From the NCBI GenBank assembly GCA_008632985.1, contig QPGO01000034.1, positions 118,110 to 138,109 of the forward strand: a stretch of DNA of 20,000 nt, read 5' to 3'. A model generated the notes under the pieces. That model was not told the DNA's origin. It saw only the letters and a program-made list of their open reading frames with translations, and did not search any database. The stretch comes from Psammoneis japonica. Taxonomy: Eukaryota. Positions 1 to 20,000 of this stretch are shown piece after piece. Numbering within the stretch: the first letter of the stretch is position 1; every line of letters starts with the position of its first letter. The position numbers were made by a program, and so were the translations under genes.

Positions 1-149
1 GTTGAGAGATGGAGTCTGGAGGAGATTGACGGTCTTCAAAAAAAAAAACACAAAAGATTGTTCATTTTGTTGGCTGCACTTTGGACAACTGCCATCAAGT
101 CATTTGGCACAAGATTGTGCTGAGTGCAATTTCAAGATGTGGTTTCCAG

Positions 150-1181
150 ATGTTTGGCAGGGGTTGAAAGGAAATGTGTTGTCACCAATGGAGATCAACT
201 TGCTGACAAGCAGCCCACCTGCACAACTCTTGCAAACAGACAAGAAAGATGCTGCATGTTTTCATCCCTGGCCAATGTTCTTCATCATGTTGGAGACTTG
301 GGAACAAGAGACTGCATTGCATCTCACATTTAAAACATCTGCTGAACAGATTGAAGCTGACAGCAGCTGCACATTGTTTGCAAGGAGCACACTGCATGGC
401 CATCAAAGGGAGCTCCCGCCAAGAAGCAATGAAGGTTTTGCAGCAGCAGTTTGGATTGAGCCATTTCCTTGGAAGCAGGTGGTGAACATTTGATGTCACA
501 ACATGCAATGCTGGCTGCACAACTGTTTGTCATCCAGCAAACAACAACTGCTGTGTTGCCTTGTGCTGTGGATGGATGTTTGACTGAAGCTGGCTTTTGG
601 TCACCAACTGCTGCATGTCAAGGCTGCTGGGTTGGGTTGGCATCATTTGTGCCCAAGGCTGTCTGAGTTGATCCAGGAAGCCATCAGAAGTGCAAGGAAT
701 GCATCTCATTGCAACCCAATCAGCCAACAGGAACATTGGGATCAAACAAGAAATTGCACATGGCACCAAAGCCACAATGGTGCTGACACAGCTGCACCAT
801 CCTTGCAACTTGACTTTAACAGAAGAACCAAGCATTTTTTTTGTCTTGCAGATCACACACCCTTTCTTTCATCTTCAGAGGGGATTCCATCAAGGCGTGT
901 TTCCTGTCACCAACTGCTTTTTCAGCACTCTCTTCTCTTAAAAAGAATTTTCAAACATTCCAGCAAATGACTGCGCTGCTTTGCCAGATTGTCATCATCC
1001 ACAACCAAAGCACCAGCTCTCTGGTTTTTTGTCTTCATCACTCACTCCCACAACAGCTGCAGTTTGCATTTCTTGACATGCAGGTGATTCAATGCAGCGG
1101 GCTTCAACTCCATCAACCTCTCCTTTGCCACATCCAGGCACTCTGATGGCATGGTCAAACACAACTTTCTGTGTGATCCCA
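150..1181 (-). pseudogene. C-terminal part of a decayed Sola-like DDD transposase (downstream of the LINE insertion)
   Basis: Minus-strand frames give VVFDHAIRVPGCGKGEVDGVEA (GKGEVDG at 1109-1129), resembling the IDRxIxAPGHGKxxVDG third-Asp motif. They also give VAMRCIPCTSDGFLDQLRQPW..QP, resembling AIRRIPC..C...L..PW...QPRY. Contains frameshifts and stops; left boundary approximate. Confidence 0.65.
1166..1181 (+). repeat. Target-site duplication, left copy (TTTCTGTGTGATCCCA)
   Basis: 16/16 identical to 7879-7894; the two copies bracket the retrotransposon remnants. Confidence 0.85.
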
Positions 1182-1254
1182 CTTTTCTGCATGAGCACCT
1201 GTCAACAGTTTCTGTGTGGAATTCTGCATGAATTTTTGCCAAAAACTTGTCACC

Positions 1255-2063
1255 ATGACAATCCCTCCACTCTGCCGCAGGCTGGCCCCACTGGTGATCC
1301 TCAGCCAGATCCTCCACCTGACAAGGACACTGCTCCATCCACTCCAACCAGAGCTGGATCAGGAAAACCCAAAAGCTCTTTGCTCAAGGAGATCACCATC
1401 CATTTTGAACTCACCTCCTTCAATGTTTGCATGTCCACGGCATTGGCCATGGGTCATGCTGTGATTCTCAATGCCCTCCAACAGAAAGCCTCTCATGACC
1501 CATTGATGAATGAGATGACTGTTGTGTTGAACCGGGGTTTGAAAATTCCCAAAATCAATGCAGTTGAGTGGACTTCTGGTCTCACCCACTCTCAGCACTT
1601 TGGTGTGCATTGCATTGGTGGTTCTCATCGTTGCTCCCCAATGTTTGTCATTGCTCACTGCATCCACACCTCACCAGATGTCTGGAACATCCTGTTTGTC
1701 AACAAAGTCTTAAAAGACAATGGAGTTTGTGTGCACCGCCATGAATGGGATGAGACCAGTGTTGATCTTTCTTGAGTCACCTTGCTGGTTGATCTTGCGC
1801 CAAAGCATGGCCCAGTGGATTTAGCCCAACAATTGTTGATGGCTCTTCTTCCACCATGCACTTGCTCAAGTCACACACCTCCCTCCAGTGCCATGGACTG
1901 CACCAAATTGTCATTGAATGAACCTGTTGGCAGATTCACCTTCTCCTCCCCAAATTGCCAGACCATGCATGACCATGTGCCTTCAATGCCAACAGATGCT
2001 CCTTTGACCAATGTGGAGGCAACTTTAATGAGTGCACCCAAGCAGCCACCAAAATTCAGGTGA
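1255..2063 (+). pseudogene. ORF1 remnant of the LINE (N-terminal part only)
   Basis: ATG at 1255, ~70 bp inside the element 5' end. A Pro-rich start is followed by globular-looking sequence (KEITIHFELTSFNV...VLKDNGVCVHRHEWDE...DLAPKHGP) in ORFs 1092-1775 and 1782-2063. Assigned by position upstream of the APE. Confidence 0.55.
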
Positions 2064-2810
2064 GCGCAATCAGAACATCAGAGACATGCCTTGACACTGT
2101 GCAATTCCAAGTTCATCACAGCTGCACGTTGGCAGTGAAATGCTCTTTTGCACCATGGGCAACTCACTTGCTTGTCATCAAAGAATGCCTTCACTGCCCC
2201 GTACAAACTGGGTGGGACAGTGCTCACATCATGCAACTCCCTCTCCGCAAGCCACCAAACTCAACTCAAAGACCCACTGGGATGCTGGTCAATGCAGATT
2301 TTTGACGGAAAACACGGCCATCAAGTCATGTTTGTTTCGTGTTGCCGCATTTGTTCCAACTCTTTGTCATTGGCAGGCAAGACAACCGCGTGCGCTCAGC
2401 AAGTGGCTTTGCTCTGCCAGCAAGGCCAAGTGAATCCAGACCCTCATAGAGAGCCTTTTGCTGCACCAATCTGACTTGCACTGTCGAACAATTCTTGGAT
2501 GACTCAAACCAAGAAGTCATTCTTGTTGGCAATTTCAGCTTGGATTTCTGCCACAATTCCAACACACTTGCTTCCATGGCCCAACAGTTTAACATGTTGG
2601 ATGCCATGCACCACCAACATGAAGACTTTGAATTTTCTGCTTGTGTTCAAGGTTCCAGATGCCTTGATTGTGTCCAAGCAACTCCTGGTGCTTCAGCTGC
2701 TGCAAGACTCTGCGGGTGTGAATCTTTTGGGTGCAGAACATTGTCAGATCACCAAGCTCATTACATGGATTTCAACATGGTTGCTTTGTTTGGAAACCCT
2801 TCCGTCATTC
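2064..2810 (+). pseudogene. APE (exonuclease/endonuclease/phosphatase) domain of ORF2, N-terminally truncated
   Basis: SETCLDT; YKLGGT; DPLGCWS (DPLGRWS); SCCRIC (SAYRVC); TTACAQQ (TTAYxQQ); VILVGNF (ILxGDFN); GSRCLDCV (GSxRIDY); SDHQAHYMDF (SDHRxxxxDF). Confidence 0.85.
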
Positions 2811-3699
2811 TGCCAAGATTCCAGCTCCATGATCTTCAAGCATCTTTGCCAAAACATGTGACTGTGCATGTCTCAAAGCAGTTGATCCTTTGATCACAAG
2901 TCAAAATGTCCTTGCCGGAGCAGAGGCCCTTCTTCAATCAGGGACTCCAAATCATTGTCTTGCTGACAGATTGGACCAAGACATGCTCCAGTCATTGCTG
3001 TCAGCAGCTGAGAAATGCAAATGACACAAAGAACCAGAAAGGTCTGTCAAATTGGCTGGCCAACCTCCAGAAGCAAGTGTTTGTGTCATTGAGGATGATG
3101 GCTGTGTTCCGCAACCACAAGGATGTGGTCCCCTCCATTCTCAGAGCAAAGCACAAATTGTCAACTTCGTTTCTCCTCCCTGCAATGATTCACGAATGTT
3201 CAATGGCCCCACATTGTGCACTTGTTCGGAGTGTTGCCAAGTTGTGAAGGACAGCCAGAAGCACCAAGACACTGAACGTGATGCGCAAATTGCTGAACTA
3301 GAACTCAAAGGCACCAAAAAGTCCCAGGCTCAGGCTAAAGTTCTTTGCAATTTACACTGTGCAGAAGAAACACAGTGAGTCTTCAGAAAAATTAATGCCT
3401 GCAAGAAGAGAGAGGGCTCCAGTGTAAAAGACCATTCAAGTCCCTGCAAACCCAAACAAAAATCAAAGACGTGCAAAACTTGAATGACAGTCAACACCCC
3501 AGAAGATGCAGCCGCAGCGCTGCAGTCCAGGAACCAGCGTCATTTTGGCCAAGCTCATGGTGCTCCACCAACAGTTCCTCCTTCATCTGTTGACCTGGGT
3601 TGCAAAGGCAATGCCACAATGGCAGAGCTCATCTTAGATGGCGAACATGAGACTGGTCAGCTGAAACTTGCTGCTTCTTTGCTCATCCAGCATCTTCAG

Positions 3700-4920
3700 A
3701 GACATGCCCCACCTGCAGTGCGGAACCATGTCTCATCTGACATCTTGCTCTCCAAACCAAAGACATGGTTCGAATCTGCCTCCACATCTCTGAAGTCAGG
3801 ATTGCACCTTGGACATTGGAAAGTGCTGTGTGCTCCTCATTCTCATGCCAAAGATCTGGACTCCCAAGGCAATCCATCCTCAAAGAAAGAACATCTGGAT
3901 CAAGTTCAGCAGACACTGTTTGCAATTTGCCTCAACCTCATCAACTGGGCTTTGAAGTGGGGCTGTTTGTGTGACCATTGGAAAGACATTGCAAACACAG
4001 TGTGATGTTCAAGAAACCAGGCAATGACAAAATCCACCGACTGCAAGTCACGCACATGTGCAAAGCAGATTTTCAAATTGTCACAGTGTCAAATGGCAAG
4101 AATTGGCTCAGCACATGGAGAACCACCAAGTGTGTGATCCTGGCACACATGGATGCCATTGCTTCTTGTCTGCTCAGACTCCAGTGTTTCTTGAGAACCT
4201 GATGTTGGAAATGTCCCAAGCCTCTTGCAAAACTCTGCTGATGAGTGATGATGATTGCACCTCCTGTTGTGATCGAAATGTTCCTGCAATTGTTGGACCA
4301 TGTTCCCAAAGTGATGGAATGGACTTTTGTGTGGTTGAAGTGAACATGTCTGCCCTGCACCATGCTGGACACTGGCTTTGGACCTTGTTGGGACTGGCTC
4401 AGTGGAGTCATGCTCACACTGCTGCACAACCCCTTTGCAGCACAGGTCAAGGCAGCAGGAATTCCCCATGGCATTGGAACACCCCACACAGCTGCCTGTT
4501 TGACATCTTTGATGCAAGAGCCATGGGATCACACTTTGAAACTCCAGACAGCAAGTTCTTTGTCCAAGTTTACAATTGGGGACATGTCAACAACACGTCC
4601 AAACAGGTCAACAACTTTTGAGCAAGTCCGCAACCGTCTGCGCTTGACTTGTCCTTTTCTCTCCAACAGGATGATCAACTTTGGTGTGATTTGCTGGCTG
4701 GACACTGCAGGACACAAACTTGAGTTGCCAAAGTGTTCCTTTCACGCAGTTGAATGGGACTTTGCTGAGTGCGGCAAGTCTCACATCCGCCCACACCATG
4801 ACAACCCAGATGTTCAAATCTTCTCAGCAGACTGGTCCACGTCTTGGTCCAGCAAACAAATTTCAGCACATGCTCTGCACAAAATGCTCTGACATTACGT
4901 TGCACCAATCAGCACCAGAA
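3700..4920 (+). pseudogene. Reverse transcriptase domain of ORF2
   Basis: STSLKSGLHLGHWK; KKPGNDKIHRLQVTHMCKADF (KxPGxxKIHRLRVIHLYEADY); DDDCTSCCDR (DNDAxSCYDR); STGQGSRNSP (GTGQGSGNSP); GHVNNT at 4580-4597 in place of the catalytic G[YF]VDDT; LELPKCSFH. Confidence 0.9.
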
Positions 4921-6169
4921 AGACTCAGTTTCAGAAACTTCTCACCAAGAGCAACACCACAGCTCCATTCCTCTGATCTTGTCCCTTTGACCAGATTGAA
5001 ACATGGCAGTGCTTTCACGTGTGCCACTTGTCTTTGATGACTCATGTCCAGCCAAACTCAACTTTCTACCTGAGGAGCTCTTGACTGTTCAACAAAAAAC
5101 AATGCGGGCTACATTTGCCAAATGCGGGTGCAACAGAAATGTGAAAAGACTCGTCCCATGTGGTCCTCAATCCCTTGGCAGCAAAGGACTCCAATTGTTG
5201 GACATGGAACAATGTGTCACTCAATTGCAACTCTTGTTGAAACACTCACAAGGTGCAACAACAAACCTCAAGTTGGGAGAAGATCAACCTTGCAAAAACT
5301 TGCACATCACGGTTTCCTGGATCCAGCTGAACACAGGAATGGGAGTGAGTTTTTTGTGGGACATTGATGCAGCACTGCCGCATGTGGAATCTTGTTGGTT
5401 TGCTTCAGTCCAGTCATTCTCACACAGGATTCAAGGAAGAATTTACTTGACACAGTCCAGCATGCTCCCTCTCCAATGTGATGACAATCAGGGCATCATG
5501 GACGTGGTCCTCCAATCTCAACTCTTTTCTCATTGTGAAATCAGATGGACAAACTGCTGTTGCTCATGCTTGCAGGTGCTGTCCATGTCCAACATTGCTC
5601 TGTCCAATGGTTTGACATTGGACACAATGAAGGCAGCTGGTGACCCTTGCTTCAGAGCAGTGTCAGCACTTTGAACATGTTGAGCAGTGTGAACCAGGAT
5701 TGAGAGTGTGGGCCACATGGAAGAAGTTTTGTGTGTCCCTGTGCCATCCAAAATCACAGACACTGAAAGAACCTCTCAGAAATTGGTTGGCACCACCATC
5801 CACCAGGATGCGCATGCAAGCAACCATGCATTTTTCTCCCTTGGAGGATCATTTGTGCACCAGGTCTTCCTCTGGGTGCAACACATTTTGAGTGAATGGA
5901 ACCAGAACAGACACACCATCACAGAACTGGAAACAGTGCCGGTCCCATCCAAAGAATCATTTCCGGCAGAACTTTCCATGACAGACGACAGTCGATGGAC
6001 ACTCAATCTCCCATGTGCTGACTTGTCTGATCCACTGATTTCTCGGCTTCCTGATGCATTCCAAGACATGCTGCAATCCTTGCCACAATGGGAGTCAACG
6101 TTGTTCAAAGACCTCAAGTTTCATGTGCCCCTTAAAATGCTGCTGGTTCAATGCTTTTTGTCCTCGACA

Positions 6170-6720
6170 TTGACTGCAGGGAGTGATGGGTCTGCAAATG
6201 AAGGTGCCACCTTTGGTTGGACGATTGCATTGGCAGAACCCCTGCTGGTAGATTGTGCCGGACCAGTTTTTGGAAGACAGCCGTTGTCTCACTGACCAGA
6301 AGCATGTGGAATTCTCTCTGTTTGCCACTTCATTTACAGATTCATGGAACACTGCCACATGAGAGAGTTTCCGGATTTGGACGTGCATTGCAACAACAAG
6401 GCGGTGGTGTCTTGCTTGGAACAGATTGCTCTTAACCTGTCGGCTCCATCTCCTGGAGACCAACTCAATGGCATCTGAGATTTTCACATCTGACACAATG
6501 GAGCCAATGCCCTTGCCTCCAACTGGGACATCATGAACAAGAGATTGCACTTTTGCATGGCAATGGAGGAATCCCACAAATCCAATGCATCCCCATTTCC
6601 TCCACAGGCAAAGTGGGTCAAAGGACATCAAGATTGACATGCCCCGGTTCACACACTTTCACTCAACGCAAGAGCAAACACATGAGCAGACCAGACAGCC
6701 GGCACCTGCCAAGGACATTG
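6170..6720 (+). pseudogene. RNase H domain of ORF2
   Basis: AGSDGSANEGATFGW; GPVFG..PLSH*PEACGILS (SYRAEAYG); CNNKAVV (CDN); NWDIM; TGG GTC AAA GGA CAT CAA GAT = WVKGHQD near 6614-6634. Confidence 0.85.
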
Positions 6721-7001
6721 CAGTCAAGATGCTTCAATGGTTCTGCCCTCCCTCACTGCCACTTGCATTTGAGTTTGCAGGATGGCACATTGACATCAGG
6801 CTACAAACAGCAAGTCAGGCATGCTGCCACCGCTCCGCAACTTTTGGAGTGCATTCTCAATTCTCAAGTGCAGTCAGTGGCATCCAGAAGTGATCAACCT
6901 GACAGATTGCTTGGGATGCTCATGCCATTCTAACAAAAAGGCATTCCAAGCAACACATTGAAACAGCTGAGCTTGTTCACAACCTTCTTCCTGCCAACGA
7001 G

Positions 7002-7760
7002 ATGGTCAACAGATGCAATTCCATCCAACCTCACCATTGCATTCTCTGTGAGCATCTGATGGAGGACAGGGATCATGCACTGTGGTGTCTGCACAATGAA
7101 CCCTGGCACAGAAAATTTTTGCAAGGATTGCAGCATTGTTGCAACCAGATCAACACGATGCCAACGCGGCATGATTTCTCATTGGGTTCCATTCAAGCAT
7201 GGTTTGACAGTGAGATGGTGCGCCCAGACGATTTAGACTGCCACTGCAGAGCCCTGTGGCATGCTCAATCAGATGTGGGATGGCAGCAAGTGTTTGGTGG
7301 AAGGCACTCCACTCTTTGGAATGTGGTCCAGTTGGGGTGTTTGTGTGATTCAGGCATTCTTCATCAGCACCAAGAAGAGAACAAACAGCCCCTGAATTGG
7401 ACCATTCAGATGCGTTTGTTCACATGGAAACAGTGGTGGAGTCTGTGGGAAGAGCATGACCATCATGTGCATGGACACAGTGCAGATTTGAGGACATTGT
7501 CTCAGAGATGAAAGGTTGAGGCCAAATTGACAGCTGCACACAACAAATGCCAAGAATGCCTGGCCAAAGATTGAGGTGTCCTGCTTGATTCTGTGGAAGA
7601 TCATGAACATTTCACAACAACGCACACACAAAATTGGATCTCAATGGTCCAACCCAGACTGAAAGAAAGTCTCAAAGAAGCCAAAAAAGCTGGTGCTTTG
7701 CAGCACTTGCACCATCACCAGTTGCTTCCATCAGGCATCTCCTCAAGGAGATGCTGACTC
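7002..7760 (+). pseudogene. C-terminal region of ORF2 with CxxC...H...C zinc-binding motif
   Basis: CILCEHLMEDRDHALWC; Q..VGWQQVFGGR; WWSLWEEHDHHVHG (W..RN..VHG); TITSCF near the end. 3' limit approximate. Confidence 0.7.
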
Positions 7761-7878
7761 AAGCCAATTGCATTTGCTTCTGCCGCACCCCTGGCAGGGT
7801 GTGCTGGAGGTGTGGGTCAGCTGGTGCCAGTGTTGCTGGGCAAAGGTGCAGCAGCACTTTAAATTGGGTTTGGGCTTT

Positions 7879-7894
7879 TTTCTGTGTGATCCCA
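7879..7894 (+). repeat. Target-site duplication, right copy (TTTCTGTGTGATCCCA)
   Basis: Identical to 1166-1181. Confidence 0.85.
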
Positions 7895-9860
7895 AATCAC
7901 AAGCCATCCCCAATGCAGCCCATGGTTCTTTGACCGCATGAGAAACTTTTCCAACTGAGCATTGACTGTGGTGGTGCTTTGCTTTGAAGAGCCAGAATGA
8001 TGTGCATGGCATGTTTTCTGACCTTGACTTTGCTGCAAATCACATCACAAACTTCGCCTTCTTAAATGGACATTGCTTCATTGTTGCCACAGTGGTCCCC
8101 TGAATTTGGCTGTTGAATTTAGGCTGAAGACACTCAGAGCAGTCAGCAGATTTGAAAATGCTGTTGGCCATCAACTCAAATGCCTTGCAAAGCATTTTTC
8201 TATGCAATGATTTTTTCCAAGAATGGTCATGTGGGGAAGATGGCATTGCAGCTTTTTTGATCTTAGGGTGCAGCTCTCTTTTGCAAAAATCCTGGTGACT
8301 GGCTTGCAAACCCGGCCCCTTGTCAACAAGTTTCTTTGTTGGACCTTTGCACCCTTCCTGCCACCTGGATCTGCCACACAAACACAGGACATGTGTCCAC
8401 AAACATGCCATGCTTGGAACAATGTTTTGCAGTCAAATCCATTGAAACAAAACTTGGGGTGCATTGGGACATTCACTCTGTTCCAACAATGGAGATGAAC
8501 AGGATGGGCAATTTTGACATTCATCAGGAATGCATTTCTAATGAGGGCAATCCTGACCACCCGCATGGCCACAAATGATGGCTGCCATTGCATCTCGAGC
8601 TTTGGGATGAAGGTGGTTGGAATCAGAGCCAAAGGCTTCCTCTTGATGATTTGATTCTTAAACCCAATTGTTTGTTTTGCTGTCACAGTTCTTGGAGGTT
8701 TCAGGGTCATCACTCACAGCCTTCAACCAGCCACTTCTGCTGCACCTGCATCTCTTTCAAAAGCCTTCTTTGAAACCTGCTCAGTGTGTCTTGCAGAAAG
8801 TGCGCACCCACACAATTGCTGCATTGACACATGTTGCATCAACTGTTGCTCATTTTTTGAGGACATGGATTGCTCAGGAATCAAAAAGCAAGACATGGTT
8901 CATTGTTGACAAGGGTCTTGCCATTTGCATCACAAGCAAATTCAAATCCACCAGAATCCACAGGCTGCAACATGTCATTGTGGAGCTGATGCATGGATGT
9001 GCTGCAAAACCATTTGTTCATTCATTTTTTACATCCATCTTTACCTTCAATCAGAGTCAGTGTCTCTTGAGTTGCAATGGGTGGCTGCACTGTGTCAGGC
9101 TTGCAGAGGCTTTGCGGGTCTCAGGGAACACTTTGTGAGGCTGCCAATGGGGCTGCACTGAAGACCACATGACATCTTCTTTGTCCTCAATCAAGGCTGC
9201 CATGGCAATCTTTCCCTGCTTTGTTTGTCAACAAACAGTTGTTGGATTTAGACTGGGTGCACTGGCAAAGTTGTTCAAAGACACTCTGGGTTCATTGGCA
9301 GATTTTTCTAGAGAACTGGAAACTCCAATTGCTGCTGAACAGATGAAAGATTCTCTGTCTCATCAGCAGAGCATTGACCACTGTTGGCATGTTCCCACAT
9401 TTGGCCCAGCTGCTTGGTCATTTGCAAAGCAACATCCTTCATTTTTGGCATTGTCAAACCACAGGCCTCAACATGAAAATTGGAGTCAGGCATTTGCAGC
9501 ATGCAGAGCAATGCACAGGCACATTGCTCCTGAGCAGTGGCGCAGAAGAAGATGGCACATCTTGTGCTGACTGCTGCATGACACAGCACTTGTTCAGGAT
9601 CTTTGTTGATTTTGTCAAAGGATTGAGAATCAAAACAAAAGCATTCTGTGGTGGGCATTTCAGGCCAACAGGAGTTTGGACATCTGGAGCAATTGAGGGA
9701 GTGATGGCAGCATTGTCAGAGGTGAGGTTGGGTGGAGTGGCTGTTGCTCTCATGGTGTTGCTTGTCAGAGATGAAGCAGGATGAGGAAGCAGCTGTTGCT
9801 CCTTCAGCGTCAATTTGGGAGGAGGCAGGTTGTCTTGGAAAGGGCAACCCTTCACAGCAA
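7879..9860 (-). pseudogene. N-terminal and central part of the decayed Sola-like DDD transposase
   Basis: Minus strand, in order: VQPPIATQETL...TSMHQLHNDMLQPVDSGGFEFACDANGK; CHLPHMTILGKNHC; ADCSECLQPKFNSQIQG (first Asp at 8142-8144); HHSGSSKQSTTTVNAQL; VIWDHTE (second-Asp motif, overlapping the TSD). Start approximate. Confidence 0.65.
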
Positions 9861-10949
9861 GACTTTTTGTTTTTGCTGTTGCCAGCTTGCCCTGATGACT
9901 TGTGTTGCCAGCTAACTTTGGATTGCTTCCTTCTCTTGATCATGGTGCATTGGGGATTTGAGAGTGAAAAATGTGCACAAAGAGGGCTGGTGGTTGAGAG
10001 GGATGAGAAACATTGTTTTGTGGCATGCTCTGCAAAAATCAACTGTGCAGTGTCTGGAGAAACAGGGCATGTTTGAATGTCACTTGAGCTGAAGCAGACA
10101 GCAAAGTCAAGCTCCAAAAAATAAAAAAGTGCACGCGCAAAGAGCATTTTTCATGCAGAACATGACACTTGCTAAAAATGGCATTTGTGGCACAAAAAAC
10201 TTCTTCAATTTTGATTGTTTCAAAAATTGAAAGGCAACAAGTGCACACAAAAAAAATTAAAAGGTTTGTGTGCACTCACCCTTCAAAAATTTTGGAAAAG
10301 ATCAAAGTTGAGGGAGCTCATTGTGCCAAATGCAAAAATGGGCCAGTGATGGATTGCAAGCCTGTGTGCAACACCTGGAGATAGAGCAGGCTGGCATGTG
10401 AGTCTTGAAGCTGAGCAAAGTGTGGACATTGTGTCAGACCCATGGCTTCGTGATCCCCTCTTTGGCACACAGTGCTGGGCCTCCCCGACCCCAGGCACTG
10501 GGCGCACCTCTGTCTGACAGGAGCTGGCAACTTCTCAACCAGACATCAGGTTTTGAAGCTCACACAATGGGATGCAGCCAGGCAAATGGCCAAACACCAG
10601 GAGGAAGCAAAGCAGCACAGTCAAGTGCTTCAGAAATTCTTTTTGCCTGCAAACAAGAGTGCTGCTGCACCACAGCCTCTTGTGAATGCAGCAACAGCTT
10701 TCAACTGTGACAAGCACCCAGCCATGTTTCATTTTTGTCCTCCCTTTCTGGGCCAGGAGTGAGCCCAAATGTGGGCGACATGTGAGCAATGGCCTTTTGT
10801 GCACTTTTCTCTTGTTGTGGACAAGGAGAAAAAAAATGATGCCATCAAGCACACACACAGCAAAGTTGCCAAAGCAAAATGACAACTGCAGTTGCCAATG
10901 TTGTCAGCCATTCAAAAAAAAAAGCTGAGCAGGGCTGTTGAATCATGAT

Positions 10950-11064
10950 GAGGGCTTTCACCTCAGCAGACCTTGGCAAAGTTCACAAAAATTCATGTGC
11001 AAAGAACCACAAGCCATTTGGCAATTTTCAAGCCAAAAAGCACCCCCAATGACCACCCTCTTAA
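10950..11064 (-). mobile_element. Putative 5' terminus of the Sola-like element (5'-GAGGGTGGTC... on minus strand) next to TTAA
   Basis: ...GACCACCCTC|TTAA at 11051-11064. GAG...CTC termini and TTAA targets are described for Sola3. It lies ~1.2 kb upstream of the transposase; the partner end is not in the window. Confidence 0.45.
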
Positions 11065-13070
11065 AGAGCACAACAGTGGCACATTTCACTTTTTCAATTG
11101 TCAACAAATGATCATTTGGCTTTGAAAAGGCACAAAAAAGTTCAGCAAACTTTTCAAATTGAGCAAACTTGGCAACTTTGTCATGCATCCAAGTTTTTTG
11201 GCACAAATTTGGTTCTTGCAATTGTGCAGTTTTTGTGTTGTCTGAAGTCCCCAAATTTGTGCATGTGCATTGGCAAATTTGTGCAGAGATTCCTCTGAGG
11301 TCCAAACTTTTGGTGCCCATCAGAGAAAATTTCACTTTTGACAACTTGGCACACTGCATGGGCTGCATTGGTGCAGATGCACAGAACTGTGCAGGTGAGA
11401 TCAGTTTTGTGGGAAAACTCACTGATTTGAATTGTTTGAGCATCAGCAAAGTTTCCATTGAGGATTTTCAAACAGAGCACAAATTTGCTAGAAATTGTGC
11501 ATGAATGTGGACTCTCCGGAAAGCCCCAATGCAGCCAAAGTTGTCATGTCCCAGAGATGACAGCTTTGGATGAAGCCAGGAGCAAGAGTTTTGTGGCGGC
11601 TTTGTCCGCACCACTGGCAGCTGTCATCAATGTGAGAAACAAGCTGTCATGGGTGCCGTTGCTCTTTGATGAGCAGCAACCCCCATTGTCCACCATCCTT
11701 GTTCTCCACAAGAAAGATCTGGGATGAGTCTAGTGGGTGTGTTGTCTGTGAGCACCATCTGCCATGCCAAAACACAGCATCAAGTTGAGTGCACTCTTGC
11801 TGTCTCCAAGGCTTCCTCCCATCCAAGGGTGGTTGCTGGCAAGCCAGGAAGCCACACCATGGCAAACACCTTGAAACACCTTGAGCACCCAAGGAGTGAC
11901 CATCAGCGGCTTTGATCATGAAGTGATGCTGGATGAGATTGGCTGCCCAAGATGACAAAAAGGTTTGAACACCTGATTGAGTGGAGTGCAATGTGCTGAG
12001 AAAGTGCTTTCTTTACAAAGAATTTTTCTCAAGCTGGACTTTTGATGCCTCAAGTGCCCTGTGTGCTGCTGCAGTCAGCTTTGTCCCTTTCAGCATTTTG
12101 CAGAGCTGGGGTGTGAATGATTGAGCAGAGCCTGAGGTTTGTGAATCTCTCGCACAACTTGCATCATGGGAGTGGGTCTGAACCCTCTTCCATGATGCAC
12201 CATGAGCCATCAAGGTGTCAAAGTTGAAGTGCCAGTGCCCTTGTGTCAAATGATGAGCATGTGTTCTTGCATGATTGGTTGGGGCTGTCCAGGGCATCAC
12301 CCTCTGCTGGACATTGTTGGACCCTGGAGGCCATCAACAAAAAGCTTGCCTCCTGCCACTCAGCAGGTTGCTGCCCCAGCCTGTCAGCCCAGCCAGCTCC
12401 ATCTTGCTGCTCTGGGAGCTCCGACATTTGCTTGCAATCCAGCATGTCACTGGCTTTCCACAAGTCCAAAGAGACCTGGAAGACCACGACTTGGTGGATG
12501 GCTGCAGCAAGTTGTCAGAAAAGCTTTGCTTTGATGATGCCAGTTCCTGTGCAATGCTTGGTGGTGCAAAACCATGCAAGGCATCATGGAACTTGACATG
12601 GGCTTTCACATGCAAGCAACATGCTCAGTGCCCCCCACATCACTTCAAGGAGGCTGAAGAAGCCCCTGAAGCCACCCCACTGTCCTTCAGCATTGGGGCC
12701 ATGGGGTCATTCATGTAAAAAATTAGAGTTTGTCTGACTTGCAGTGAGACCACCATGACGACCTGCTGCACCTCCAAGAGACCAACAACCTGAGTCTGAC
12801 ACTGAAGTCCTGAGACATTCTCCCTGCATTCTAGCTGGGAAAACTCAACTTTCATTTGCTTGGCTTTCATGCCACTGTGCACAGCATCAAGCACTGCACC
12901 ATCTCAACAGCACAGCCCAAAATTTGTTGCTCACCTGTTGGTTGGGTTTTTCCTGGATTTTTGTGTCATTTCTTCACCCAATGATCAACTAAATCCATGG
13001 TGGCTTGCAGGCTCCATGCCAGCTGGGTTTGCTTTTTGCTGGCCATTGTTGCCATCCACCCACCAATTGT

Positions 13071-14053
13071 CCAGCATTGCTTTGGGTCACCATGATGAGA
13101 CAAATGTTTGACCCATTGCAATTTGCAACCTTGGTGGCACAACAAGAGGCTGCAACACAAAACTCTCATCATGCACTTTCTTGGCTGTCAGCCAGTGGTT
13201 GCTGGTCACTTGTGGGGCTGGAAAAGATGTGGACAATTGTGACAGGGCATCCAGCATTGCTTTGGATCATCCTTGCTGGGTGCACATTTGACCCACTGCA
13301 TTTTGCAGCTTTGGCAGTGCAGCAAGAAGAGGCCAGAGCACAGCATTCTCATTGCACACTTTGGTCACAAGTGGGCAATTGCTGGTTGCATGTAGGGCTG
13401 GAAAAACACAGACAATTGTTGTGACAGGGTGTTCAGTGTCACTTTGGGTCATCACAATGAGGTGCACATTTGACCCATTGCAATTTACAGCCTTGGCAAT
13501 GCAACAAGAGGCTGCTGCAACACAAAATTCTCATCGTGCACTTTGGTTGGCAGCCGGCTGTTTTGCCAAGTGCCTGTGGGCTGGAAATGATGCAGCTGAT
13601 TGTGACAGGGCATCCAGCATTGCTTTGGGTCATCATGACAAGGTGTGCATTTGACCCATTGCAATTTTCAGCCTTGGTGGTGCAACAAGAGGCTGCAACA
13701 CAAAATTCTCATTGCACACTTTGGTCATTGGTTGGCAGTTGTCAGTTGCTTCCAGGGCTGGAAATGATGCAGATGATTGTGACAGGGCATCCAGAGTTGC
13801 TTTAGGTTGTCGTGACATGATGTGCCCTTGCTCTGTTGCAATTTGCAGCCTTGGCGGTGCAACAAGAAGCTTCAACACAGAAATCTCACAGTGCACGTTG
13901 GTCATTGGTCGGCAGTTGCCAGTCACTTGTGGGGCCAGAAGTGATGCAGATGACTGTGGTGGGGTGTCTGATGCTGATTTGGGTTGTCATGACAACATGC
14001 ATGTTTCATCCATTGCAATTTGTGGTCTCAGCAGTGCAACAAGAGGCTGGAAC
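13071..14053. repeat. Tandem array, ~5.5 units of ~176-182 bp
   Basis: Units start near 13071, 13251, 13433, 13614, 13791 and 13967. Shared core: CCAGCATTGCTTTGGGTCA...TTTGACCCATTGCAATTT...CAACAAGAGGCTGCAACACAAAATTCTCAT...GGGCTGGAAA...TTGTGACAGGGCAT. Confidence 0.95.
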
Positions 14054-14345
14054 TCCATGGGTTTTTTGCACACTTGGTTGTTGTCATTGTTGGAGATGGC
14101 AGGTCACTCATTGCTGTCTCAAGAGCTTTTTAACCCACCTCAACAAAGTTTTTGTTTGACAGACAACTGACATGTCATTTGCAGCAAATGTTGCAGCCAA
14201 CTGGTGGGTGCCACTCAGGTGCAATGAAACAACCAGGAGAGCTGCAGTCCCACACAGAGCAGTGCCTGCCAATGCAGTGCACCATTCTGAACTTTGCAGA
14301 GCATTTTTTCCAAACTGGTGGGCTGTGTTGTGTTTGATGTGGGGA

Positions 14346-14381
14346 AATGGGGGTTTCTTTTTCACAAACAAAAACCCCATT
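14346..14381. other. Imperfect inverted repeat (hairpin) AATGGGGGTTT...AAAACCCCATT
   Basis: Read directly from the sequence; lies between the two tandem arrays. Confidence 0.55.
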
Positions 14382-14430
14382 GGCCAGCACAGGGGTGCTT
14401 TTTTGGGGTTGTTGCAATTTTTGCAGTGTT

Positions 14431-14805
14431 CAGCCTGCAGTTGTTGGGTTGGTTGGTCCCATCAGTGTGTGGGGTCCTTTCACTGTGGAGCAGAGAGTTT
14501 GAACAAGTCTGGTTTTCCTTGGTGAGATGAAGCCACAGCTGCATGACAGTGGCCTTGCAACATTCTTCCACAGGTTTCAAAGTGTTGCCTGGGATCTAAG
14601 AAAGACTGCCAATGCCCTCAGGCTGCAGTTGCTGCATTGGTTGGTCCCACAGTGGTGTCCTTTTACTTTGAAATTAGGAAATGCAAGCCATTCTTCTTGG
14701 TGGGATGAGCCACAACTGCACAAAAGTGGCCTTGCAACACTCCACCACAGCTCTCAAAGTGTTGCCCGGGATGTGCCAAAGATCCTCAGTGCCCTCAGGC
14801 TGCAG

Positions 14806-14836
<31 letters not shown>

Positions 14837-15070
14837 CACATCCAACCAGGACAACACAGTGGATTGTTGTGGTTGTTGTGTTTGTTCATCCCACAATGGT
14901 GACTTTTCACTTTGGAGTTGTTGGGAAACTCAAGCCATCCTGCAGCTCTCAAAGTGTCACCTGGGATCTGCCAAAGACCCCAAGTGCCCTTAGGCTGCAG
15001 CTGTGTTGCATTGGTTGGCCCTGTGACAGTGTCCTTTTAATTTGGAGTTGGGGGCTCAAGTCATCTTCCA
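14431..15070. repeat. Second tandem array, ~3.4 units of ~177-195 bp
   Basis: Units start near 14431, 14619, 14796 and 14991 (CAGGCTGCAG-like). Shared CTCAAAGTGTTGCCTGGGAT...CCAAAGA...TGCCCTCAGGCTGCAG and TTGGTTGGTCCC. Confidence 0.9.
14806..14835 (+). repeat. (TTG)10 microsatellite
   Basis: Ten perfect TTG units inside unit 3 of the second array. Confidence 0.97.
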
Positions 15071-15376
15071 CTGGCAGCAGACAAAATTGAGTCATGTGAC
15101 AGATGTGCATTCTCTGAAGGTTGCTCACATTTGAACCAAATGAAAGACATGCAGTTGTCAGAGGTTGGTGCACTTCTGGGAGATGCAATGGTGGTGGGTG
15201 TCACAAGTTGCCACACAACTGGCACATGCATTGCAGTCATGGCCATTGCAGCTGCAATGGCATGCTGGCATTTAGGATTTGACACAAATTCTGGAAGCTG
15301 ACTTGACCCCTTCATTCTCAATTGTGCCGGTCAATCTCAAATTTGTTTTTGGAAGTGCTGCGGTGGTGACAATGTG

Positions 15377-18300
15377 TCATCTGACACTTGGTTCCTTTTT
15401 TAAAAGTGTTGTGCAATGCCCAATGAGTTTGCATTGTGCAATGAACTCCTTTTTCCTCTTTGGTGTCTTCAGGCTCAGTTTTTTACACACAAGACACCTC
15501 CACTCAGATTCATCACACATGCAACCCTCCACCATGATCAGCACAACACCTCCTGGTCTCATTCTGGCTTTACAGACTTGTTCACAGCACATGTCCTGAG
15601 TGAAGAAGATGAGCTGCTGAGCACTTGATGCAAGGCATTTGTGCATTCAGTGTTTGCATCTGTGTTGCTGGCATTGCCAGAGGTCAATCATGACCTGATG
15701 CAAGCACAATCAACCTTTTCAAGTGCTTTGAATGACTCCTCTTTGTCCAAATCCTCAGTGCCCAACAACAGATTGAACAAACCAAACTGGCTCATTGCTT
15801 TTGTTTGCACTGTGGAGCCAGATGCCAAGAGCAACATGTCAAGAAACAAAAAGAAGAAAAGTCACCTGTGTCACTCACTCCCAATGTCTTGGATTGCTGT
15901 CCCAAGAGTCAATGTGATGTGGAGCTCCCAAAGCACATTCATTCTTTTTGCTTTCAAATGGATGCAATGAGTCTCCAGAAAAATGTTGCCAACATTGTGG
16001 ACCATGGTGTTGACATTGAGCAAAGGACATCACTTGCATGCTGCCATTCTTGCAACATGGGAATGCAAGCCATGCATCACAGTCACATGACAAGAAGTCT
16101 CTGATGAAAATGCCAAGACAAGGCACTGTGCATTGGCCAAAAAGTTTGGTGGCACTTTTGCATTGCTCATTCTTTCATGGTTTTGGAGTGTGTTTGCAGC
16201 AACTGCACAACCTGGCTGCAAGAAATGAAGAACCACCAGTTCTGTTGGAATGGCACATTGCACACTTTTGTCAAGATGTTTTGCCCCCATCTCTTGATGC
16301 ACATGCAGAATGCCTTCAGGTGCCACTCAAGAACAATGCAATTGTTTCATTGTGGCTGCTGTTTTCTGCTGTCTTCAGACAGTCAAAAATCTTTCTAATT
16401 TGGGGATCATGCTCCACAAAGAACGCATTGTCTTGTGCTCCCATTGTTGATCTTCACTCCTCCCACCCATGGCCAAAGCCTTGTTGAGTCTGCTTGCCCC
16501 ATTTGAGTTGCAAGGATTGCACATCCCAGTGTTGCCATCACAAATGCAATTGGGTGGTCCTTCTTGATGCAGCCACTCCACGCTTGGCAGGCATTGATGG
16601 TGACAACCTTTTCTGGTTTTGCACAAGACAATGAGACATGGTTGCACACTGTCTTTTGGGGTTGTTCTTGTTGCCATTTGCACCCCACAAGACACATGTG
16701 GGAGCCAATGGAGAATTTGATTTAGGAGGCTTTGACAAGTCAATGCCAAGTTTCTCAAATGCAGGTGCGCAGCTCTTGTTGGCAGTGCTGGAAAGTCCAA
16801 CATTCAAAGGCTTCCTCATTGCAATGGGGTCAAATGTGAGCCAAACGGAGCAGCCTGTCTGTTTGTCCAACACACTGGTTTTCAAAAGGAAAGCGACACT
16901 TTGTCCAACTCGTTGGCAAGAAAATGCACTGAGAAACCATCCCTGCTGCATTGTGGAGCAGAGACAGGTTGAATGCATCACTGTGCAAGCTGGATGTTGC
17001 AGCTGAGGAGTTTGCAGTGGAAGCCCCTGTCACCACACAAATGGCTTTTTCTCAGCACATTGAAACAAGACAAATCACTGCACAGTGGTCCAAGAGCTTG
17101 TGGCCCTGTCAATGCCAAGACATCTCACTTTGCTTGGCGCTTCATTGTGCTGGCCAACAAGCCCACAATGTCTGCAATGTGCAACATGGGGAAGGTGCAC
17201 TTGAATGTTTTGTGCATCAGTGGTGAGTGGAGTGGGCTCTGTGGAAGCAACACTGAATTCTGTTGTGGAGAGCAGCTCCAAAAAAGACAATGTTCATTGT
17301 GAACAAACCCAACATCAGTTTTGGCCTCTGATGTTTCCACCTGCATGGAGCCAAACACCCTGCAAGCAACCAAATGCAAACATGCAAACATCTTGTGAAG
17401 ACAAAAATGATGGGTGTGGCTCATTGGATTTTCTGCAGGATTCTCATGTGCAGTTTCTGCACATTGATGAATGGTGCCTGCTGCAACAACAAGTGGCCAT
17501 CTTGCTCACCACACAATTTCAAGTTTTGTTGCAACAAACACTGTTGTTGCCAAGAACCTGTCCTCATTGATGCTGTCCCCCCCCCCCCACACACACACAT
17601 TTTGACTCTGCTCTTCTTTGGCGTCAAGTGTGCAGTGCTGTTTTGGATGCAGATCCAGGCAGTTCAATCTCAGTGGTTGATGAAAGGAGCAAGCTCTTGC
17701 CACTGCTTGTGTCTCCCATGACAGATTCACATGTTGGCCCACAATTTCATTCTTCAAAAGCTTCTCCACAAGCCTTGGTGGCTTTTGTTGCCCTCTGAGG
17801 TCACCACCGCTGCATGTCAAATTTCCTTCTTGCTGGAAATTTTGGGTGTTTCCAAGGAAAATTAAGCCGAATCTGAAAGACATGTCAACCTGGCCAATGA
17901 GATGCATGGGGACAAAAAAAATGAGCATTGGAGACAAAGTTGCTTTTCATTTTTTATCTTGGTGCTTTTGGCGGCACTGGCAACATGAACTTTGGCTCCA
18001 CGTGCTGGATCTTTCAGGTGAGGGCTGCATTTGGGATGCTTCTTCAATTCACTGTCTTCATTTGCTTTGCCATGACATCAATGGTGCAATGAGTGTGATT
18101 CCAACCATGACAAAAAAGCACAGACCTGTTTTTTTAAAGTGTTGTCAGTGCCTTTACCCTGCAACCGGCAAACCCACACTTCCAGTGTGGACTGCCTGAT
18201 GATGTCACAGCACAGGCACAAGTGGATCATCCAGAGTTTGCATGGGCCGCTGGTGGCACCCTTCAAAAGCAACATGCTGTGCCAAGCCATTTTCATTTGT

Positions 18301-19219
18301 TGAAAAATGCTGATTTTGAGTTGTCAAACATGACTCGTGGCACAATCCATTTTTGTTCAATTTTGGTTTCAATCACAACTGTCAAATGTCACATTGGAAC
18401 ATTGTTGCAGCATCAAAGCTTTTGTCTTGGGATCCCTGCAGAACAGTCTGTTGAACAATTGTTTTTTCATTGCCTGGCACATGACACAAATCAATGGAAT
18501 GACCACTGCTTTCAGGGCCAACAAGACTTGTCTCTAGACCAACAAATCTGTGTTTCTGTGCCACAATGGTTTGTCTCATTTTGTGAGACACAACTTCTGG
18601 ACTTGTTGTTTGACCTTGTTTCATGAATGCCTCTCATCCCACCTGATTCTTTGCATCAACATGTGCAAATTGAGCTGCCAGCCCCAGGACTTCTTCACAG
18701 CCCAAGTCCACATTTCTTGCTGTCAACACACACACAATTCAGTTGGCTCAATGGCTGGGTTTTCCACTTTGGCTTGGGCCATTGCTCTTGCTTTGTCAAC
18801 TGAAACTTGTTTTGACAGATGCTTCACAGTGTCCCTGCCCACATGTTTCAGCAGCTTTTTGTTCAGTGTTGCCTCCTTCACACTGTTGATGGCAGCGGAG
18901 GAGTTGAGCAGCAGCAAGCACACCATTCCCAGCATTGACACATTTTGTTGGTGAGTGAGCTAAAACTTGTTGGGAAGGTGTCTTGGTGTTAGTTGGTTGG
19001 GTTGTTGAGCTTGCTGTTGGGAAATTCCACAAGTGCAGCTGCATCATCATTCTCAAAACTCTCCCCTTTGGTCTCCTCCTCTATGTTGTCAGAACATTCA
19101 ACAGCATCCTGAGTGCACGACTCAAAGTCTGTTGACTGATCAGTTGGTGAGTCATCCACAATGTGGCCCTCATCTTCAAAGTCACCTTTGAAATCTGCTG
19201 TTGCCTTGTTGCATGCCAT
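15377..19219 (-). pseudogene. Large decayed ORF, possibly a transposase (Academ/DUF6589-like), with an acidic N-terminal tract and a C-terminal Cys-rich PHD-like remnant
   Basis: Acidic segment at 18989-19219 (DFEDEGHIVDDSPTDQSTDFE...EEETKGESFENDD) and helical-looking 18723-18941. Weak motifs FGCLQ....WKH near 17340 and DPIAM...LDF...NLAL...MATRT near 16660-16830. CEQVC...EGCMCDESEWRCLVC at ~15485-15590. Family call is tentative. Confidence 0.35.
17577..17598 (+). repeat. C12 homopolymer followed by (AC)5
   Basis: Read directly from the sequence. Confidence 0.9.
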
Positions 19220-20000
19220 CCTGTCACCTGGTGTGTCATCAGCATTCTGCCTCTCATGAGCACTGCACCATCCACAACAGACTGTTCTTGTGGTGCCATG
19301 TGCTGTGTGGTGTCAGCCATGACACAGAAATTGGCCACCATGTGCTGCTTCATTTTTTGTGACCAGTTGTCAGATGATCTGCTTCATTCTCAAGCACCAA
19401 CATGGGCAGGCACGGATTGTTGAGGCCAAGAGACTTCTGCCAAACCAACACCAAACTGTGCCTTTTTAGGTTTGTTGCCACACTGATTTTTCTGCCAATG
19501 TTTGCATCACCTCACATTGTTGGAATCCATCTGTCATTTTGCTTGATGCTTGGGTCAATCCACTCAAGTGCTTTTTGCCTTTTTTCTGTGCTCATGCTGA
19601 ATTTCTGCTCTGGACAATGGCACAACAATGACACATCATGTGACCCCCACACTGACAATCACAAAGAGCAGCAGTTGTGCACAAGAGAGAAAACTTGCAC
19701 TGCTGCATTGTGGATGCTGTCAACATGGTCAGCATGGTGGGACTGCACTTTTTTGTCATTTCGGTGGCCTTCAATGGTTGTCAAACCAGCAAGTGAATGT
19801 TGCCAAAAGACCATCCCACTGGGCTGCCTGTGCTCCTCATTGATGCACTTGCCTTGGCAGCTTGTGATGGCTCTGTGGGTGGGTTGCCAAAGGTGTGAAT
19901 GCAAACTGCAAACTTGCACAACAACAAGCACCCTGCTGATGCCAAATGACAAATCACACAAACCACCAAATGTTTCACTCCAAAGAGTGAGACAAAAAAA

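Follow-up and report, generated by a model that had tools for sequence, protein, structure and literature searches.

The dinucleotide TpA is almost absent from a 20-kb stretch of the genome of the diatom Psammoneis japonica (C35:118110-138109, all of it referred to here as the window), which lies inside an island of repeats holding a decayed long interspersed nuclear element (LINE), and the question raised by this locus is what removed TpA and left a few sites behind. Across the window the observed/expected ratio was 0.05 for TpA, 0.13 for CpG and 1.86 for TpG/CpA, and the TA ratio was 0.06 in positions 300..7870 (the span), where the sequence-only reading had proposed a sequence-specific, strand-symmetric mutator preferring R-TA-Y (R, purine; Y, pyrimidine). 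Rates measured in independent transposon families bear that proposal out: a context-specific TpA mutator almost certainly acts on repeats in this genome, turning T:A into C:G and removing R-TA-Y fastest. The loss was limited to repeated DNA, as at both island borders the TA ratio fell from 0.5-0.7 to below 0.1 over a few hundred bases, with the gene-bearing flanks spared (0.43-0.72). The GC content of the island was 0.47, similar to that of the flanks.

Within the window 76 TA dinucleotides were left, 29 of them in the span, and every site cited earlier was found again (TA at 331, 817, 1711, 6133, 3353, 5444, 6335, 3635 and 7234; GTAC at 2201-2204). By tetranucleotide, the span sites were TTAA (10), TTAC (6), TTAG (3), CTAC (3) and CTAA (2), with CTAG, GTAA, GTAG, ATAG and GTAC seen once each. 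Against counts expected from the flanking dinucleotide frequencies of the same DNA, RTAY was nearly gone from the span, as the sequence-only reading had stated (1 of 29 against 6.1 expected, p 0.01), and YTAR was in excess (16 against 8.6, p 0.003); over the whole window the figures were 1 of 76 against 14.9 (p 1e-6) and 48 against 23.7. Among 500 dinucleotide-preserving shuffles of the span, RTAY was found at most once in 5, YTAR at least 16 times in 3, and ATA and TAT together at most once in none, while 0 of 500 shuffles of the window reached the observed values for any of the three. The flanks of surviving TA differed, then, from what local composition would give, and the tetranucleotides said to be everywhere in the span were indeed abundant (TGCA 111, CATG 87, TGTG 69, CACA 81). 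Other details required adjustment: TTA/TAA was raised among survivors (1.6) but CTA/TAG only mildly (1.25), and the loss of RTAY, although real, was strongest at ATA/TAT (0.18; 6 against about 34 in the window) and merely 0.70 at GTA/TAC. Half-favoured, mixed contexts such as TTTAC accounted for 12 of the 29 span survivors, and the pattern placed at 300..7870 was present there but extended through the whole window. Read on the + strand, the window survivors included 14 TTAC and 2 GTAA (p 0.004 raw, 0.02 after allowing for base skew; one of six such pairs), a skew that stands beside an absence of strand bias in the transposon families.

Context-dependent loss of TpA in transposon families

Lightly and heavily mutated copies from the same genome were aligned for three unrelated families, gypsy, LINE (in pieces) and copia (its 3' part), with 25 gypsy copies among the matches listed and about 30 copia pieces used. 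This gave 6,470 site-copy observations at 523 sites (copia and LINE 1,966; gypsy 4,504) after removal of sites nearly fixed in one direction (15 of 72 copia, 29 of 293 gypsy) and of 6 closely related or overlapping copies. The removal was conservative, since it took out 18 mixed gypsy sites, at 15 of which the fixed change lay on the TAY strand. The young LINE families A-F on their own retained too few TA for contexts to be ranked. At most sites copies differed independently in direction (TG or CA), with the two outcomes about equal, and this independence indicates that the changes arose after insertion.

In hit tracts TA had changed at about 80% of sites and other A:T sites at about 0.4-2%, the best target among non-TA adenines being AAY (0.030; AAR about 0.005). 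With each site counted once, TA survival was 0.018 for RTAY (113 sites), 0.155 for mixed contexts (192) and 0.386 for YTAR (102), so that the per-context rates proposed as a check on the sequence-only reading agreed with it. At mixed sites the T-A-Y strand was changed about two times in three, and it was the strand more often hit at 139 of 177 informative sites.

A competing-rates model in which each copy has a single exposure was fitted with a site bootstrap, its A-strand weights being relative to A = 1. At +1 the weights were 3.95 for T (3.39-5.07), 3.07 for C (2.56-3.71) and 1.27 for G, and at +2 they were 2.42, 2.37 and 1.70 for T, C and G; at -1 (the base before T) they were 0.54 for G, 0.46 for C and 0.39 for T, and at -2 they were 0.82, 0.69 and 0.40 in the same order. 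The target on the A strand can be written 5'-(A>G>C>T)(A>G~C>T)-T-A-(T>C>>G>A)(Y>G>A)-3', the A of the T-A step being the changed base. Strand symmetry held (sense/antisense ratio 1.03, interval 0.97-1.13). R-TA-Y is lost fastest because both strands carry T-A-Y, but the unit is T-A-Y on each strand, with graded effects from -2 to +2, and not R-TA-Y itself. Site rates spanned about 60-fold, from TTTAAA (0.31) to AATATT (19.2), and long exposure therefore leaves mainly YTAR in T/A runs.

Weights from copia/LINE and from gypsy had the same rank and differed in size (-1 G 0.80 vs 0.47; +1 G 0.82 vs 1.49), and in cross-prediction the negative log-likelihood was 4684 for the null, 4116 with the other set's weights and 3972 with a set's own. 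Fitted on other copies and given one free exposure, the model predicted the 76 window survivors with log-likelihoods of -135 and -136, compared with -191 and -181, respectively, when context was ignored. Observed and predicted counts were 0 and 0.0 for ATAT, 0 and 0.2 for ATAC, 1 and 1.8 for GTAC, 2 and 3.3 for ATAA, 4 and 2.1 for ATAG, 5 and 8.6 for CTAC, 6 and 8.6 for CTAG, 16 and 11.0 for GTAA, 19 and 15.5 for TTAA, and 23 and 24.8 for CTAA.

Bystander changes and mosaic copies

Further FINGERPRINTS, the direction of change was uncorrelated between TA sites 3 to 1,200 bases apart, the same-direction fraction being equal to expectation, a result that rules out long processive tracks on a single strand. 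Adenines outside TpA but no more than 2 bases from a hit were 3-9 times more likely to be changed on the strand of that hit (gypsy, private changes only, 55/2325 against 8/2894 on the opposite strand; a pool of six further sets, 37/2105 against 15/2556, p 2e-4, this replication outside gypsy being based on smaller sets), and at offsets of 3-4 bases there was no effect (21/2739 vs 27/2384). A sequential change of context does not explain these bystanders, as the same-strand rate was 35/675 at TA[A] and 19/5789 at the G[A]N control. TATA had become TGTG or CACA 133 times in gypsy and 57 times in copia, as against 76 and 25 times for TGCA or CATG. Away from TpA, V-A-Y (V; A, C or G) was a weak secondary target, changed at 260/12956 in hit and 22/3178 in spared tracts (V-A-R 48/12130 vs 6/3093); more than 5 bases from any TA, VAY>G was seen at 60/4872 in hit and 4/1160 in spared tracts, and VAR>G at 25/5569 and 5/1376.

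Among the 25 gypsy copies (L131-L155), 10 (for example L134, L135, L139 and L152) were mosaics of hit and spared kilobase tracts with sharp internal borders, about 80% of TA being lost from the hit ones. CpG decay followed the same borders, with private CpG loss about 5-fold higher in hit tracts (63/2972 vs 4/1042 in spared tracts), and the shared domains of TpA loss and CpG decay suggest methylated chromatin. Proximity to CpG was not the driver, as TA survival showed no fall near CpG, and in younger LINE copies the TA ratio was 0.04-0.2 while CG still stood at 0.6-0.85, which places TA loss before CpG decay. Four gypsy copies had a spared tract at roughly the same place. Spared tracts may reflect chimeric assembly or a sub-lineage origin; that they were recent conversions from active copies was not supported, as private transversions were higher there (20/7143 vs 25/19527 in hit tracts).

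Mechanism, rival explanations and known systems

We judge it probable, by a modest measure, that adenine is deaminated to hypoxanthine, which is then read as G, by an enzyme of TadA/ADAT or ADAR fold. The repeat-directed mutator turns T:A into C:G at TpA after transposon insertion, on each strand independently and near to saturation; an adenine deaminase in this role would serve genome defence, would be drawn to repeat chromatin that is methylated or silenced in some other way, and would open the duplex at the TpA step over only a few bases. This step is weakly stacked and A-runs are rigid, which would explain both the resistance of TTTAAA and the influence of both flanks, and if the duplex opens locally, the 2-base reach of the bystander changes would follow. 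The T-A-Y motif agrees with the preference of TadA-derived adenine base editors, for which the available part of the source gives TAY as edited best and MAR (M; A or C) as edited worst (PMC10879117). The fuller proposal, that diatoms have a natural chromatin-targeted adenine deaminase which edits T-A-Y-Y in duplex DNA by opening roughly 5 bases and clears silenced repeats of TpA, is put forward tentatively, as a possibility somewhat short of probable; such an enzyme would be an A-to-G counterpart of the repeat-induced point mutation (RIP) of fungi, and possibly shared with chlorarachniophytes. The context preference, which the sequence-only reading expected to fingerprint the enzyme, narrows the class of enzyme but names no single one.

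The genome has a TadA-like gene (C38:7.4 kb), an ADAT2-like gene (C26:119.9 kb) and further housekeeping-looking deaminase genes (names assigned from motifs), and two genes of the A_deamin family (ADAT1/ADAR fold; L196 at C40:112.7 kb and L197 at C79:344.6 kb) are candidate mutators. The one on C79 has many relatives in diatoms for which no further Pfam domain is recorded; in the ESM Atlas, one of the two matched generic A_deamin clusters and the other had no match. Two contigs carry a dCMP-deaminase-like gene in which the deaminase domain occurs twice in tandem (L181, C41:505-507 kb; L182, C317:55-57 kb). The genome also gave 29 matches to C5-methyltransferase (PF00145), and one C5 cytosine-methyltransferase copy is itself TA-erased (L203, C301:35.3-36.3 kb; no Tyr in 365 amino acids), with more copies on C297 and C10.

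Several observations weigh against an adenine deaminase. The sequence is equally compatible with A or T as the attacked base, and the bases on the 5' side of T carry nearly the influence of those on the 3' side of A, a near-palindromic pattern that duplex shape would fit no less than the pocket of an enzyme. Taken alone, the bystander effect was significant in 3 of 7 sets (J, A and B; p 0.08-1 in G, G2, H and D), it was absent from copia set G once shared changes were counted, and such changes would equally follow from an error-prone polymerase. The deaminase-domain genes found look like housekeeping ones, apart from a second A_deamin gene whose relatives extend across diatoms, none tied to the process, and the TAY match concerns engineered editors acting on single-stranded DNA. 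The amphioxus tRNA deaminase BjADAT2/3, like the proposed enzyme a natural one and reported to deaminate A in DNA, prefers GAA, TCG and hairpin loops in the available part of its description (PMC10354150), but neither GAA nor TCG is targeted here, GAR being among the least changed contexts and C being no co-target outside CpG.

It is doubtful that the loss is due to an error-prone Y-family polymerase which puts G across from T at TpA while it fills repair patches in methylated repeats, the patches being triggered by CpG deamination. Five Y-family loci in the genome, the roughly 5-fold excess of private CpG loss in hit tracts and the rank of AAY as best non-TA target all speak for it, and the closely spaced same-strand changes fit polymerase slips. 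DNA polymerase eta in somatic hypermutation, as far as the source was available (PMC7884765), likewise gives A>G at a TA hotspot downstream of cytosine deamination, but its WA (W; A or T) hotspot includes AA, whereas here AA changed at 0.4-3% and TA at about 80%, an excess of more than 30-fold. Patch synthesis would also give strand coordination over the length of a patch, and none was seen at 3-640 bases; TA survival did not drop near CpG, transversions were not raised in hit tracts, and TA was lost far ahead of CpG.

A second rival, which we consider unlikely, has thymine as the attacked base, the T of R-T-A being modified in silenced repeats (for example oxidised to a G-pairing form) and fixed as C. 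The spectrum would be identical, as T-A-Y on one strand is R-T-A on the other, and modified thymines occur in the DNA of microbial eukaryotes. A search of the genome for TET/JBP gave no match, though the control search gave no signal either; a literature search showed no precedent for an R-T-A-specific thymine mutator among the papers listed, and the adenine reading has the agreement with a known enzyme preference (PMC10879117) in its favour.

It is very improbable that survivors are TA regained from TG or CA in T- or A-rich runs under a mutator lacking flank preference. At 17863, 18990 and 19082 every close paralog has TG or CA where the window has TA, and part of the survivors may be regained, but context-dependent loss was measured directly at TA sites of lightly hit copies, which largely refutes this explanation; escape also gives the better fit to the 76 survivors (log-likelihood -290, against -302 for steady-state regain and -353 with no context), and several of them are common to paralogs or lie on Tyr codons of homologs. 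Practically no room is left for gene conversion, an assembly artefact or the generic GC-biased drift against which the sequence-only reading had argued: the A:T to G:C direction suits them, as does an assembly that probably lacks single bases at a few places (3 in the span), but island GC is like that of its flanks, CpG was lost and not gained, A:T sites outside TA barely changed, the same TA-poor sequence occurs in public contigs, and direction differs site by site between copies.

An adenine deaminase may also be set beside known systems. Mettrop et al. (bioRxiv 10.64898/2026.01.13.699255) described de novo A>G change at TpA only in Bigelowiella natans, at a rate raised roughly 1000-fold in a subset of lines, with TpA hypermutation in integrated nucleocytoplasmic large DNA virus and virophage DNA; the de novo mutations of the preprint number 231, and an A-deaminase was proposed, not shown. 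The main text of the preprint is without flanking context, of which its Fig. 2B motif and supplements may hold information. In the parts of the preprint compared, both systems change T:A to C:G almost exclusively at TpA, on both strands, in foreign or repeated DNA, leaving TpA-poor clusters rich in CpA/TpG; here the host is a diatom, the targets are LINE, copia, gypsy and other repeats, the change is near saturation, and bystanders and tracts were analysed, which those parts of the preprint do not do. The diatom process is thus the same substitution in another lineage and on other targets, with a measured hexamer preference and micro-clustering. A literature search, with most subscription journals outside it, found no description from diatoms and the B. 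natans preprint as sole relevant match.

RIP in ascomycetes makes dense, repeat-directed, dinucleotide-specific transitions in sharply bounded tracts and is tied to cytosine methylation; it acts before meiosis and is set off when duplicated sequences pair. The diatom changes share repeat targeting, density and sharp tract borders, but RIP changes C:G to T:A at CpA and so makes TpA, which is removed here, and pairing alone does not explain spared tracts inside high-copy gypsy DNA. Adenine base editors co-edit nearby adenines (bystander editing) and are much less TA-exclusive than the diatom process; in the accessible part of their description they are engineered, Cas9-guided and act on a single-stranded R-loop. 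The strand-coordinated clusters over tens to thousands of bases of APOBEC-like processive mutation were not seen.

To date, genome defence by TpA-specific A>G change has been published for a single, unrelated alga, without an enzyme. Candidate enzymes can be scored against a signature made up of the -2 to +2 weights, same-strand bystander changes within 2 bases and an absence of coordination at long range; the signature can also be compared across genomes, to ask whether diatoms and chlorarachniophytes share one system. Were an adenine deaminase acting on duplex DNA responsible, it would be relevant to base editing as a natural editor of adenine in double-stranded DNA.

Elements of the island and public contigs

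The LINE of the span, which we took to be Ambal-like (a literature search on 'Ambal' found no papers), gave 50 DNA matches in the same genome and 21-41% identity in tblastn with homologs P0001-P0003, on which Exo_endo_phos and RVT_1 scored under the curated cut-off. Pfam scans of three read-through window frames and of the least broken LINE copy returned 0 families. For 35 window codons the aligned residue is Tyr in two or more intact homologs; 15 of these codons are TGY, 6 CAY, 2 TAY and 12 something else. The dating and annotation of diatom repeats change accordingly, Tyr becoming Cys or His, and TAA and TAG stops vanishing to leave long false frames. The TA-erased LINE copies L022, L052 and L076 had stop-free frames of 1,000-1,900 codons with almost no Tyr, which exist because TAA and TAG were removed and which can pass as intact genes.

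Features of the island and the window (window positions unless a contig is named; X1, public contigs)
Feature	Position	Strand	Remarks
TpA-erased repeat island, ~27 kb	contig C35 ~113,750-140,800		window 1..20000 is its middle; sharp borders
29 surviving TA	300..7870		YTAR 16, mixed 12, RTAY 1
Decayed non-LTR (long terminal repeat) retrotransposon (LINE), open reading frame	1985..7697	+	endonuclease, reverse transcriptase, RNase H-like and zinc-finger parts; frameshifts, TGA stops
GTAC, sole RTAY of the window	2201..2204		on codon aligned to Tyr in 1 of 4 homologs
Surviving TA (GCTAAA)	3336..3337		TG in X1
CAC in window, TGT in X1	5858..5860		letters differ
Second multicopy repeat, also TA-erased	7881..10391		transposase-like frames in less decayed copies
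Degenerate tandem repeat, ~180-base unit, TA-erased	13070..14053		self-match
Segmental duplicate	15177..20000		91-97% to C260, C231 and C222

In the segmental duplicate, 12 window TA were compared with the copy L156, where 6 were shared and 6 read TG or CA. The public contigs, from one run and possibly from the assembly's own sample, contained the TA-poor sequence again, their 8 longest pieces covering 7,217 of the 7,571 bases of the span and 27 of its 29 TA. Over the span 14 letters differed, 7 of them at CpG, with one TA>TG, one TA>TT and one CA>TA. The difference at 5858..5860 probably goes back to one ancestral TAT that was hit on one strand in the window and on the other in the public contigs, the window having gained a bystander change on its hit strand as well. 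At 799, 842 and 6749 the public contigs had one additional G or C each, probably single-base deletions in the assembly. The CpG sites surviving in the window were themselves biased, with CCG/CGG at 1.36, TCG/CGA at 0.64 and GCGA/TCGC at 5 against 20 expected.

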